Part shown: piece by piece, positions 36,267 through 40,841 of the stretch
Layout: each line of letters starts with the position of its first letter
Position numbering within the stretch: the first letter of the stretch is position 1
DNA from: an uncultured Azospirillum sp.
GTDB lineage: Bacteria; Pseudomonadota; Alphaproteobacteria; RF32; CAG-239
NCBI GenBank assembly: GCA_902489795.1
Contig: CABUBU010000001.1
Span: 41,956-105,955, forward strand
Direction of reading: 5' to 3'
Length of the DNA: 64,000 nt
Notes under the pieces: generated by a model
Told to the model about the DNA's origin: nothing
Database searches by the model: none
What the model saw: the letters and a program-made list of their open reading frames with translations, nothing else
Program-made: the position numbers and the translations under genes

Positions 36267-36398
36267 ATGAATAAGGAATCGTTGTTTCTGTGGCTTTTCC
36301 TGATTGCCGCCGGGCTTTCACTTGCCGGCTGCGGCAAAGTTTCCAGTCCGGTGCCGCCGGAAGGCAGCGCCTATCCCCATGCTTACCCGCGGAAATAA
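36267..36398 (+). CDS. 43-aa lipoprotein (not in the ORF track, which omits ORFs under 60 aa)
   Basis: RBS aaggtg. MNKESLFLWLFLIAAGLSLAGC with a lipobox, then a Pro-rich tail. Sits 24 nt upstream of the vWA gene. Confidence 0.5.
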   Translation: MNKESLFLWLFLIAAGLSLAGCGKVSSPVPPEGSAYPHAYPRK

Positions 36399-36422
36399 CC
36401 CCAGCAGACAAGGAACATCAAA

Positions 36423-37109
36423 ATGGCAGAAAACAACTTCGTAGACGACATGATTCCCTATGTGGAATTTGCCGACAACGCCAATGAACGCACCCCCTGC
36501 GTTTTGGTGCTGGACTGTTCCGGCTCCATGCGCGGAGAACCAATCAAGCAGTTAAACGTCGGCTTGAAAGCGCTGGAAAAGGAACTGAAAGAAGACATTG
36601 ACGCCAGCTCAAGGGTGCAGCTCCTGATTATCAAAGCTTTCGGCAAAGACGAAACCGAAGTTTCCGCCGACTGGATCGACGCCATGAACTTCACCGCGCC
36701 TGAAATGGCCGCCGGCGGCCTTACCCCGCTTGGCAAGGCGATGGAACTGGCGCTGCAGAAAATCGAAGAGCAGAAATGTCTTTACGACAGTTGCGGCATC
36801 ACTTCCAAACGGCCGTGGATATTCCTCATCAGCGACGGCGAACCGACCGATTACGACTGGGAAAGCGTCGCCCGCAAATGCTGCCGGGCACAGGAAAACA
36901 AAAAAGTGGTCATTCACGCCGTCGGCACCGAAGGCGCCAACCTGGAAAAACTGGCGCGCTTTTCGCTCAACTCGCCCAAACGCCTCACCGGGCTGAAATT
37001 TACCGAATTTTTCCTCTGGCTCAGCCGCAGCGTTTCCTGCATATCCAAAGCGGCGCCGAACGCCGGAGACCTGTTTGAAGACACGGGAAACTGGGATGAA
37101 GAAAACTAA
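36423..37109 (+). CDS. von Willebrand factor A (TerY-like) domain protein
   Basis: MIDAS motifs VLVLDCSGSM, ..TPLGKAM.. and ISDGEPTD. Cytoplasmic, with no signal peptide. Confidence 0.85.
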   Translation: MAENNFVDDMIPYVEFADNANERTPCVLVLDCSGSMRGEPIKQLNVGLKALEKELKEDIDASSRVQLLIIKAFGKDETEVSADWIDAMNFTAPEMAAGGLTPLGKAMELALQKIEEQKCLYDSCGITSKRPWIFLISDGEPTDYDWESVARKCCRAQENKKVVIHAVGTEGANLEKLARFSLNSPKRLTGLKFTEFFLWLSRSVSCISKAAPNAGDLFEDTGNWDEEN

Positions 37110-37848
37110 AGCCGCCAACATCAAAGTGCGCGCCGCCTGCATCACCGGACCGGTGCACCTCGGCCGCGGCCAGCTCTGCCAGGACCGCTGCCGCTGGTCC
37201 ACCCGCGGCGCCAACTTCGTCGCTGTCGTTTCCGACGGCGCCGGTTCCACCAAATACGGCCGCATCGGCGCCAAAATCGTCTGCGACACGCTGGTCGACC
37301 TGCTGGAAAACGCCCCGTTTAAGGACATCCGCGCTGCCATCGTCAAAGCCATCGGCGTCGCCCGCGACAAGCTCGCCTTCCACCGGCTCAATTCCGCCAA
37401 CAACAAAAAAGGTATCATGGCTTTTGCCGCCACTGTGGTCGGTGTCGTCTGCCACAAGGGCGAAGGGCTGTTTTTCCACATCGGCGACGGCGCGGCGCTG
37501 GCTTTCACCTCGTCCGACCTCTCCAGCTATGTCGCTTCCAAGCCGGAAAACGGGGTCTTTGCCTGCGAAACCTATTTCTATACCATGGACGACTGGCAGG
37601 AAAGCCTGCGTTTTACCGCCTTTAAGGAAGCGCACACGGTAATGCTGATGTCCGACGGACTGACCAACTTTTCCTTTGCCCCCGACTTCAGCCGGATTGA
37701 ACCGAATTTTCTGCTGCCGATCAACGATTTTCTCAACCGGGAAAAGCAACAGGTCCGCGCCGTCCGCGCCCTGACCAACACCCTCAACACCACCCGGGCC
37801 AAACGGTTGAACCCCGACGACAAAACCTTTTTGTGGGCAAAACTGTAA
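37096..37848 (+). CDS. PP2C-family Ser/Thr phosphatase
   Basis: Motifs VVSDGAGS, HIGDGAAL and LMSDGL. Overlaps the vWA 3' end by 14 nt. Confidence 0.8.
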   Translation: MKKTKAANIKVRAACITGPVHLGRGQLCQDRCRWSTRGANFVAVVSDGAGSTKYGRIGAKIVCDTLVDLLENAPFKDIRAAIVKAIGVARDKLAFHRLNSANNKKGIMAFAATVVGVVCHKGEGLFFHIGDGAALAFTSSDLSSYVASKPENGVFACETYFYTMDDWQESLRFTAFKEAHTVMLMSDGLTNFSFAPDFSRIEPNFLLPINDFLNREKQQVRAVRALTNTLNTTRAKRLNPDDKTFLWAKL

Positions 37849-39326: not shown

Positions 39327-39351
39327 ATTTTTACTATGAAAAAAAATTTTT

Positions 39352-40797
39352 TTGTGGTATAAGCGTTCTAATAAAAAATACTATGAAAGGTTTATCAACT
39401 TGAAAAGCTTAAATCCCATTCTCATTTCCGGTAAAGAAGTTCTGCCATTGATTGAAGGCGGCAAAGGCATTAACGGCAGCGACGGCCGTAGCAGCGGCGC
39501 CTGGGCGCATGAAAACTGCGTCGGTACCTTTTCCGGCGTCAGCCCGGATTTTTACGATGATAAAGGCAACGTTATCATTGAAAAGTTTTTTAAAAAATCA
39601 CGTCCCGAACGTCATGAAGAAATGGTAGAAAGAGCCATTAAAGGAGGCGTTGCCCAAGCTCAGGTTGCACATGAAATCTCTGGCGGCAACGGTCGCATTC
39701 ACATGAATATGCTGTGGGAAATGGCAGATTCGCAGCGCATTCTTGAAGGCGTGCTGGAAAAAGCCAAAGGCCTGATCAACGGCATTACCTGCGGCGCCGG
39801 CATGCCCTACCATCTCGGCGCGCTGGCTTCAAAATTCGGCGTCTACTATTACCCGATCGTTTCTTCCGCCCGCGCCTTCAACATCTTATGGAAACGCGCC
39901 TATTCCAATTTTACCGAATTTCTGGGCGGCGTGGTTTACGAAGACCCGTGGCTGGCGGGCGGACACAACGGCCTCTCCAACGCCGAGAACCCGGATAAAC
40001 CGGAAACACCTTATAACCGTGTCGCCGAACTGCGGCGGCTGATGAACGGCTACGGCCTGACGGAAACGCCGATCATTCTGGCCGGCGGCATTTGGTCGCT
40101 GAAAGACTGGGAAGACTACATCGACAACCCGGAAATCGGCAAAATCGCCTTCCAGTTCGGCACTCGGCCGATGATCACCAAGGAAAGCCCGATCAGCGAA
40201 GCCTGGAAAAAGGTGATGCTGCACGTCAAAAAAGGCGACGTCATTTTGCAGCGTTTCAGCCCTACCGGTTTCTTCTCCTCGGCCATCAAAAACACTTTTC
40301 TGGCCAAGCTGATCGATCGCAAAAACGGCGAAATCGCTTTCAAAACGGAAGCCGACGCGGAATTTTCCCAGCCGCTGAAAATAAGTGACCACAAAACCGT
40401 ATTCATCAAGCCTGACGATATGACCAAAGCCAACAACCAGATCAATGCCGGACTGACGTCGATCAAGGAAACGCCGGATCAGACCGTTGTTTTCATGACC
40501 CCGGAAGACTGGGAACAAATGAAGGAAGACCGCAAAAACTGCGTCGGCTGCCTTTCCCAATGCCAGTTCTCCACCTGGTCGGCCGTCAGCCCCACCGGTT
40601 CGACCGGCCGTATCCCCGATCCGCGCACCTATTGCATCCATAAGACGCTGTACGAAGTCGGGCACGGCGGCAGTGTCAGGGATCATCTGCTGTTTGCCGG
40701 TCATCAGGTTTACCGCTTTGCAACAGATCCGCTTTACCGCAACGGCTGCATTCCGTCGGTTAAGGAATTGATTGAAAAAATCAAACGCGGCGAATAA
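39352..40797 (+). CDS. NMO/NPD-family (FMN-dependent TIM-barrel, nitronate monooxygenase-like) oxidoreductase with a Cys-rich C-terminal extension
   Basis: LPLIEGGKGI.., ..AWAHENCVGTFSG.. and ..ILAGGIWS.. match the PF03060 pattern. The extra 150 aa carry CVGCLSQC. Start is uncertain (a TTG near 39397 is possible). Confidence 0.55.
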   Translation: MWYKRSNKKYYERFINLKSLNPILISGKEVLPLIEGGKGINGSDGRSSGAWAHENCVGTFSGVSPDFYDDKGNVIIEKFFKKSRPERHEEMVERAIKGGVAQAQVAHEISGGNGRIHMNMLWEMADSQRILEGVLEKAKGLINGITCGAGMPYHLGALASKFGVYYYPIVSSARAFNILWKRAYSNFTEFLGGVVYEDPWLAGGHNGLSNAENPDKPETPYNRVAELRRLMNGYGLTETPIILAGGIWSLKDWEDYIDNPEIGKIAFQFGTRPMITKESPISEAWKKVMLHVKKGDVILQRFSPTGFFSSAIKNTFLAKLIDRKNGEIAFKTEADAEFSQPLKISDHKTVFIKPDDMTKANNQINAGLTSIKETPDQTVVFMTPEDWEQMKEDRKNCVGCLSQCQFSTWSAVSPTGSTGRIPDPRTYCIHKTLYEVGHGGSVRDHLLFAGHQVYRFATDPLYRNGCIPSVKELIEKIKRGE

Positions 40798-40808
40798 GAC
40801 AAATAAAA

Positions 40809-40841
40809 CGAACCCCGGAATTTTTCCGGGGTTCGTTTTTG
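40809..40841 (+). terminator. intrinsic terminator ending the vWA-PP2C-kinase-NMO transcription unit
   Basis: Hairpin cgaaccccgg-aattttt-ccggggttcg followed by T5. Confidence 0.75.

Follow-up and report, generated by a model that had tools for sequence, protein, structure and literature searches.

A probable YegL-PphC-YegI-type phospho-signalling operon of a gut alphaproteobacterium, with a small lipoprotein leader gene and a separable NMO-family neighbour

The window considered here is a 64,000-nucleotide stretch of the genome of an uncultured Azospirillum sp. (GenBank assembly GCA_902489795.1, contig CABUBU010000001.1, positions 41,956 to 105,955). Between 36267 and 40841 it carries five genes on one strand, for a 43-aa lipoprotein, a von Willebrand factor A (vWA) protein, a PP2C phosphatase, a Ser/Thr kinase and an NMO-family flavoprotein. 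An earlier note, made from the sequence alone, took the five for a single module. Our own reading, which we hold with good confidence, is that the locus is a phospho-signalling operon of the YegL-PphC-YegI type (the TerY-P type) belonging to a gut alphaproteobacterium, and that the NMO gene is separate from it. The triad of vWA protein, phosphatase and kinase is itself known; the new part is a clade-specific variant of it, with a micro-lipoprotein leader gene and a constant TlpA partner. The triad and the parts of its kinase are laid out as follows.

36423-37109, plus strand: YegL/TerY-type vWA protein, predicted cytoplasmic, 228 aa (Pfam VWA, E 2.5e-6, above cut-off)
37096-37848, plus strand: PphC-type PP2C Ser/Thr phosphatase, 250 aa (Pfam PP2C_2, E 9e-37)
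37848-39326, plus strand: YegI-type Ser/Thr kinase, 492 aa (Pfam Pkinase, E 3.6e-10, above cut-off)
Residues ~16-315 of the kinase, plus strand: kinase domain, by homology
38826-38879, plus strand: zinc ribbon of the kinase, C327/H333/C341/C344, invariant in the clade and aligned with the C..H..CxxC of YegI
39042-39281, plus strand: three predicted transmembrane (TM) helices of the kinase, residues 399-417, 428-446 and 460-478 (hydropathy scan)

All five open reading frames (ORFs) lie where the earlier note placed them and match the families it predicted (Pfam VWA, PP2C_2, Pkinase and NMO). Its description of the triad is borne out as well: the vWA protein has no signal peptide and a complete metal-ion-dependent adhesion site (MIDAS; D31-x-S33-x-S35, T101 and D138), whose residues align with those of YegL; the phosphatase ATG lies 14 nt inside the vWA gene; the kinase ATG and the phosphatase stop have one base in common (TAATG); and the kinase, said to end in two or three TM helices, ends after three predicted ones, with no extracytoplasmic domain. 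The three genes are translationally coupled. In every related locus the vWA and phosphatase genes overlap, by 8-38 nt, and the junction of phosphatase and kinase ranges from -4 to +12 nt.

Related loci were drawn from 80 species-level genomes, with kinases 55-99% identical to the window copy; counts below refer to 77 loci for the lipopeptide, 76 for TlpA and 70 for the NMO gene, the 70 being those with enough sequence. Every one comes from a gut or rumen alphaproteobacterial metagenome-assembled genome (MAG), and the window itself is 99% identical to contig MNTV01000020.1 of a human-gut MAG, 'Azospirillum sp. 51_20'. Kinase activity and its reversal by the phosphatase would be expected from the E. 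coli homologues and from the conserved catalytic residues of the kinase (G-loop, K47, D167/K169/N172 and DCDGF), which are invariant in the clade. The vWA protein, the non-enzymatic partner, appears from the alignments to be the most constrained member of the triad, and unusually strongly so: it is 83-100% identical across the clade, against 55-99% for the kinase, and 83-90% identical in pairings where kinase and phosphatase retain only 50-60% (L009-L088). Sequence searches of the PDB with the vWA protein and with the kinase profile gave no match.

The same three families stand in the same gene order in E. coli, as yegL-pphC(yegK)-yegI. The window vWA protein is 42% identical to YegL over its full length (E 8e-51), with an identical MIDAS; the phosphatase aligns with PphC from end to end at 25% identity (E 4e-11); between the kinase and YegI, identity is 27% across residues 16-349, the C..H..CxxC zinc ribbon included (E 8e-26). 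In both kinases the membrane anchor follows the zinc ribbon, and there is little or nothing by way of a periplasmic domain. The anchor of YegI consists of two TM helices and leads into a cytoplasmic tail of about 200 aa; the window kinase has three helices and then ends. The E. coli locus also differs in its surroundings: it is without a leading lipoprotein gene, a divergent TlpA gene and an NMO neighbour, all three of which the window has, and K-12 has yegJ between pphC and yegI, whereas the window triad is translationally coupled.

The earlier note had counted the membrane anchor among additions that could be placed in no described system. In fact such an anchor is normal for this kinase family and has already been described for YegI, an active Ser/Thr kinase that crosses the inner membrane twice and is dephosphorylated by PphC (bioRxiv 10.1101/819920, 10.1101/303594). 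When 1.84 billion representative proteins were searched in full with HMMER, 6905 proved related to the window kinase, 641 of these representative clusters at E<=1e-30; homology is limited to query residues ~20-365 (kinase and zinc ribbon). The C..H..CxxC motif is present in every one of the 143 representatives listed with a length of 400 aa or more, and in 118 of them one or more TM segments follow the zinc ribbon, according to a simple hydropathy scan that also recovers both TM helices of YegI known from experiment. The usual arrangement among relatives is a single TM helix and, beyond it, a long C-terminal domain; among the representatives examined, the three-helix tail is matched only within the window's own clade.

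The assignment to the TerY-P class, which the earlier note had made, also holds. In the passages of PMC11090510 that quote Anantharaman, Iyer and Aravind (2012), the TerY-P triad consists of a TerY-like vWA protein, a PP2C phosphatase and a kinase to which a zinc ribbon is fused. In the ter-operon triads of IncHI2 and Klebsiella plasmids the vWA, PP2C and zinc-ribbon kinase genes are co-directional and adjacent, as in the window. Our example of the canonical form, on an IncHI2 plasmid (L174), reads TerW, vWA, TerD-family, vWA, TerY-C protein, PP2C, kinase. The window vWA protein is about 31% identical to the IncHI2 TerY proteins, and the C-lobe of the window kinase is 28% identical to that of the IncHI2 plasmid kinase. 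The differences are nonetheless plain: the window has a single vWA gene where the ter plasmids have TerY1, TerY2 and TerY3 with a TerY-C domain, and the plasmid phosphatase is twice as long as that of the window. No Ter or TerD family gene (TerZABCDE, TerW or TerX) was found in the flanks of the window cluster or of the 80 related loci, and overall the window triad is far more similar to YegLKI than to plasmid TerY-P. One distant triad (L092, 1622-3036) has two tandem vWA genes before its phosphatase and kinase, recalling the TerY1/TerY2/TerY3 series of L174.

The locus is chromosomal, vertically inherited and part of the core genome. Across the 80 species genomes the order TlpA (minus strand), lipopeptide, vWA, PP2C, kinase is fixed, and the outer flanks of the cluster are rearranged; the neighbours are housekeeping genes (DnaJ, GrpE, EF-Ts, S2 and M20), and the position of the locus is fixed in at least 80 species. 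An rpsB leader RNA (RF01815, 51 bits) lies at 24434-24545 on the plus strand, upstream of the S2 and EF-Ts genes, and a tRNA-Arg(CCT) at 30993-31069 on the minus strand; these are ordinary housekeeping features and mark the region as core chromosome.

At the head of the cluster stands the lipoprotein gene, preceded by a divergent intergenic region and, on the other strand, by the TlpA gene.

36267-36398, plus strand: prolipoprotein of 43 aa with a LAGC lipobox (conservation, coding signature)
36248-36259, plus strand: leader and ribosome-binding site (RBS) ACAAGTAAAAGG, conserved
36223-36229, plus strand: conserved TATATAA (alignment of 13 diverged loci)
36197-36225, plus strand: probable sigma-70-like promoter, TTGCCT at 36197-36202, a 17-nt spacer and TAATAT at 36220-36225 (cross-species conservation)
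36160-36266, plus strand: spacer between the divergent genes, with blocks conserved in an alignment of 13 diverged loci
35632-36159, minus strand: TlpA/ResA-like periplasmic thiol:disulfide oxidoreductase with a signal peptide and a WSRYCVPC CxxC site (Pfam AhpC-TSA, E 5e-11; Redoxin, E 5e-10)

The lipoprotein is a real, selected gene, as the earlier note had supposed when it proposed this ORF, and it is the one genuine addition to the known triad, so far seen in this bacterial group only. A lipopeptide ORF of 39-53 aa lies upstream of the vWA gene in 77 of 77 species loci, with a gap of 4-28 nt; a regular-expression search for the motif missed it once, in L049, which reads GSDYPH. Cleavage is predicted at LAG|C and would leave a lipidated peptide of about 22 residues (22-43), for which the consensus is C-G-K-x-S-x-P-x-P-x-E-G-S-G-Y-P-H-x-Y-P-R-x. 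Eleven residues are conserved to 90% or more; their codons, compared in 74 distinct DNA sequences, show an entropy of 0.07, 0.10 and 1.20 bits at positions 1, 2 and 3, a pattern that marks purifying selection on a peptide rather than on RNA or DNA as such.

A profile search that covered 5.8 billion proteins returned 333 lipopeptide clusters; the best 120 of the 333 are all 39-53 aa long and have no Pfam match, and the only source name among those 120 is a JGI label, 'YceK'. Two divergent members that were checked belong to the clade and sit in the order Redoxin (minus strand), lipopeptide, vWA, PP2C, kinase, with different outer flanks (a VTT-domain protein in one, pntAB in the other). Outside the clade, a metagenome scan seeded with distant kinases returned mostly the clade itself, together with five truly distant triads (L090, L092, L110, L126 and L167), whose kinases are 40-44% identical; intermediate lineages are thinly sampled. 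Neither the lipopeptide motif nor TlpA was found in these five. The lipopeptide, the sensor-less three-helix tail and the divergent TlpA thus come as a set in the clade, a set that no distant triad sampled has. LptM (NCBIfam NF047847) was considered as an identity for the window peptide and set aside, at 19.8 bits against a cut-off of 27.7, with an alignment on the signal peptide and lipobox only.

The TlpA gene, present as the earlier note had it, was treated there as a mere boundary of the cluster. It is more than that: a minus-strand TlpA lies within 500 nt upstream of the vWA gene in 75 of 76 species loci, which makes it a more constant partner of the triad than the NMO gene. The protein matches the NCBIfam TlpA model at 4e-18, below the cut-off. 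A longer TlpA start, TTG at 36411, was dropped in favour of 36159 on the gene calls of homologues and the positions of RBS and promoter. Between the divergent genes, the TATA and ACAAG..AAAGG columns are invariant or at least 90% conserved in the 13 diverged loci. A generic promoter scan of this region picked out just a weaker site (36162-36191), which scored no better than expected from shuffled sequence; the proposed promoters therefore rest on conservation across species.

If this much is accepted, a working scheme can be drawn for the YegL-PphC-YegI-type operon. Transcription would most likely begin about 35 nt before 36267, at the conserved putative promoter, and take in four genes: lipopeptide, vWA, PP2C and kinase. 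By homology to YegI and PphC, the membrane-anchored kinase would autophosphorylate and the phosphatase would reset it; between them, the two may control how far the cytoplasmic MIDAS vWA protein, the probable output, is phosphorylated, and with that its activity or its binding of partners. The signal might reach the kinase from the envelope or periplasm by way of the clade-specific parts, that is, the lipopeptide, TlpA and the three-helix tail.

One way to put these parts together is to suppose that the lipidated peptide is the missing sensory or regulatory subunit of the sensor-less kinase. It would dock on conserved tail residues taken as periplasm-facing, namely G427/G429/Q431 at the start of the second TM helix and N481/P484 after the third, and TlpA would tie the switch to the thiol-redox or envelope state of the periplasm. 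Small membrane proteins that modulate histidine kinases provide an analogue. The proposal is a tentative one, and as a whole we think it unlikely; were it true, the lipopeptide would be the first identified input for the TerY-P/YegLKI triad.

A competing supposition has the small lipoprotein unrelated to the kinase: an LptM-like lipoprotein of the outer membrane, or a partner of TlpA, that merely shares the promoter region with a plain YegLKI triad. This we regard as doubtful, yet as a possibility of some weight. The LptM model does match 18 of 43 clade members, weakly (best E 1.2e-5); glycine at +2 suggests sorting to the outer membrane, as in LptM, and LptM-like genes are reported in 57% of Alphaproteobacteria (PMC10567701); and all of the linkage lies within one vertically evolving clade. 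The LptM matches, however, all fall below 27.7 bits, cover the signal peptide and lipobox only and compete with those to unrelated lipoprotein families, and the mature motif GSGYPHxYP differs from that of LptM. Two further observations run counter to an unrelated lipoprotein: the gap to the vWA gene is 4-28 nt without exception, and the lipopeptide goes with the sensor-less three-helix tail, within the clade only, in the data examined.

The fifth gene has a different standing. Its elements are these.

39355-39363, plus strand: TGgTATAAG, resembling an extended -10 and lying ~40 nt before the NMO start; the probable NMO promoter
39400-40797, plus strand: FabX-like NMO-family flavoprotein, 465 aa, TTG start (Pfam NMO, E 4e-7)
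40805-40839, both strands: bidirectional intrinsic-terminator hairpin, 16-bp stem with 8 G-C pairs (terminator scan and sequence reading)

The TTG at 39400 is the most likely start; it has an RBS, GAAAGG, and homologues are called at 462-465 aa. A longer start, TTG at 39352, was dropped for the same reasons as the longer TlpA start: homologue gene calls and the positions of RBS and promoter favour 39400.

The earlier note proposed that all five genes are tightly coupled and act together, from a single transcript, in stress or defence, the switch of kinase, phosphatase and vWA protein controlling the NMO protein as an oxidoreductase effector. The genes do share a strand, no terminator was found between kinase and NMO, a single strong terminator follows the NMO gene, and that gene lies directly 3' of the kinase in 63 of 70 species. 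Coupling nevertheless stops at the kinase: in the window, an AT-rich spacer of 73 nt separates its stop from the NMO start, and where the two genes are adjacent in related species the gap is always 45-150 nt, with overlap in none. Within the spacer, and conserved upstream of the NMO start in diverged loci, is a TTTTTGTG(G/A/T)TA(T/A)A block, and this extended -10 travels with the gene, being retained where the NMO gene has moved (L053, L068) or stands apart from the kinase (L066, with about 1.1 kb between them). The hairpin at 40805-40839 exists and, as claimed, closes the NMO gene, though not demonstrably a transcript of all five.

The gene is moreover absent, moved or separated in seven of the 70 species while the rest of the cluster is intact. 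Four loci have no NMO gene and carry an inverted SH3_4/M20 pair directly after the kinase (L065, L067, L072, L086), two have it on the opposite strand, upstream of TlpA (L053, L068), and in one a minus-strand gene for a 589-aa ABC transporter lies between kinase and NMO (L047); lipopeptide, vWA, PP2C and kinase stay together in each of these. Another dozen metagenomic loci from the clade likewise have no NMO gene downstream, nor do L172 and L173, and the gene was found in no distant triad sampled (L092, L126, L167, the Sphingomonas plasmid L175 and E. coli). Together with the FabX-like character and housekeeping-like conservation of the NMO protein, these observations make a single five-gene module very unlikely. 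The attractive 'oxidoreductase effector' is a syntenic neighbour only, and a lesson in caution.

What the NMO protein might do is suggested by its relatives. The closest of solved structure is FabX of Helicobacter pylori (7e1q/9lt5; E 6e-21, residues 3-310), an NMO-family enzyme with flavin mononucleotide (FMN) and a C-terminal four-Cys [4Fe-4S] subdomain, acting on acyl-ACP (acyl carrier protein) (PMC8626469). Both proteins have the FMN TIM barrel of the NMO/FabK family and the catalytic GGH histidine, and a Cys-rich C-terminal region, in the window protein a putative counterpart of the FabX subdomain, takes the place of the NAD(P)H domain of FabK. In the window protein, which is 74-97% identical across the clade, the histidine lies in GGHNG and four cysteines are invariant (C381, C384, C388, C412), as the earlier note's Cys-rich C-terminus had suggested; they form a putative [4Fe-4S] motif, CxxCxxxC...C, whose spacing, C-x2-C-x3-C-x23-C, differs from the C-x3-C-x3-C-x11-C of FabX. 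A conserved helix, SSA(K/R)A..(I/V)L.KR, aligns with the FabX stretch taken as the ACP-binding alpha7 helix. Identity to FabX, which serves as a dehydrogenase/isomerase in unsaturated fatty acid synthesis, is only about 25%, and an insert of about 65 aa (residues ~311-376, 40330-40527) has no counterpart in FabX.

Structure prediction adds little. The AlphaFold2 model is poor (pLDDT 55; the alignment is shallow, of homologues at least 77% identical), and Foldseek with that poor model, placing FabX first and FabK next, gives weak corroboration. The insert is the only part modelled with high confidence (pLDDT ~90), with a predicted beta-beta-alpha-beta-beta-alpha fold. The C-terminal 105 aa had no match among PDB sequences even at E<=10. 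FabK itself (TIGR03151, an equivalog model) was rejected, at 23 bits against a cut-off of 453. On this comparison the NMO protein would be a separately promoted FabX-like FMN/[4Fe-4S] redox enzyme, a frequent syntenic neighbour and not a component of the triad, probably with a role in acyl-ACP or lipid metabolism. As a longer, diverged FabX-like enzyme, by its sequence, of common human gut bacteria, it may be of separate interest.

Several considerations weigh against a YegL-PphC-YegI-type operon with a separate NMO gene. The NMO gene is, after all, adjacent in 90% of species, and with no terminator found by the scan in the kinase-NMO spacer, read-through co-transcription is possible. The PADLOC TerY model matches the window vWA protein at E 0.034, which makes the protein a distant relative of TerY. 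What the E. coli papers report is limited to autophosphorylation of the kinase, its reversal and the phosphorylation of a catalytically dead PphC (bioRxiv 10.1101/819920, 10.1101/303594); phosphorylation of the vWA protein is a proposal for every member, that of E. coli included. Lipopeptide and TlpA could be conserved as neighbours for reasons apart from the kinase; and with inheritance vertical throughout the clade, their constant linkage says little about function.

A role in defence, which the earlier note had also suggested, found no support. It is hardly credible that the triad works by itself as an anti-phage system of the TerY-P type: TerY-P-like modules are reported as defence systems (Gao et al. 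2020, as described in passages of PMC11090510), with the same three-domain logic, the window kinase matches the kinase domains of PD-T4-6 and MkoA weakly in PADLOC, and the vWA protein and kinase match PHROG families, of unknown function; but the defence kinase has, in those passages, a C-terminal OB fold where that of the window has a zinc ribbon and TM helices, TerY-P components reach only noise level in PADLOC (TerY as above, nothing for PP2C), the locus keeps its core-genome, housekeeping position in at least 80 species rather than the patchy distribution of an island, and no nuclease or other effector is adjacent.

The triad of vWA protein, PP2C phosphatase and kinase is very widespread: public data contain thousands of its clusters, and it occurs as yegLKI in E. 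coli and on ter plasmids. Its biochemistry has been partly characterised; we know of no signal or output for it, in E. coli or elsewhere. The version found in this clade is a minimal, core-genome and tightly coupled form, in which a sensor-less kinase stands with an invariant micro-lipoprotein and a redoxin neighbour, and it offers a lead on the input side.

Some features of the surroundings deserve mention. The M20 peptidase and SH3_4 genes (32569-34284), upstream of the cluster in the window, relocate as a pair; in loci without the NMO gene (L065, L072, L095 and others) the pair is inverted and directly 3' of the kinase, the 3' end of which is a recurrent rearrangement breakpoint marked by this pair. 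Adjoining the SH3_4 gene is one for a PilT-like T2SSE ATPase of 324 aa (34302-35276, plus strand), an orphan in the window; in L006-L008 its orthologue ends a type IVb pilus operon (PilB-like ATPase, T2SSF, bundlin/PilS pilin; L006 86-5309). The PilT-like gene is usually found just upstream of TlpA, and is missing or moved in several species. The spacer between the convergent PilT-like and TlpA genes has GC-rich hairpins at 35424-35441 and 35563-35590, with sub-threshold matches to Rfam BSnc120 on both strands (E 0.02-0.09); most likely they are just terminators. An Rfam scan of 33-43 kb found no leader RNA for the operon, its only hits being sub-threshold palindromic matches in that spacer.

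On the other side of the cluster, at 41645-42151 on the minus strand, is a gene whose 168-aa product carries a serum amyloid A (SAA) domain (Pfam, E 5e-11), of a family unusual in bacteria; an SAA-domain gene is likewise close to the cluster in L170. Farther away, a low-GC, ORF-poor segment at ~26900-28150 extends for about 1.3 kb in which no ORF reaches 70 aa, and at ~50000-52000 a segment of 2 kb has 37% GC against about 53% elsewhere in the window; both segments could be islands or non-coding features.

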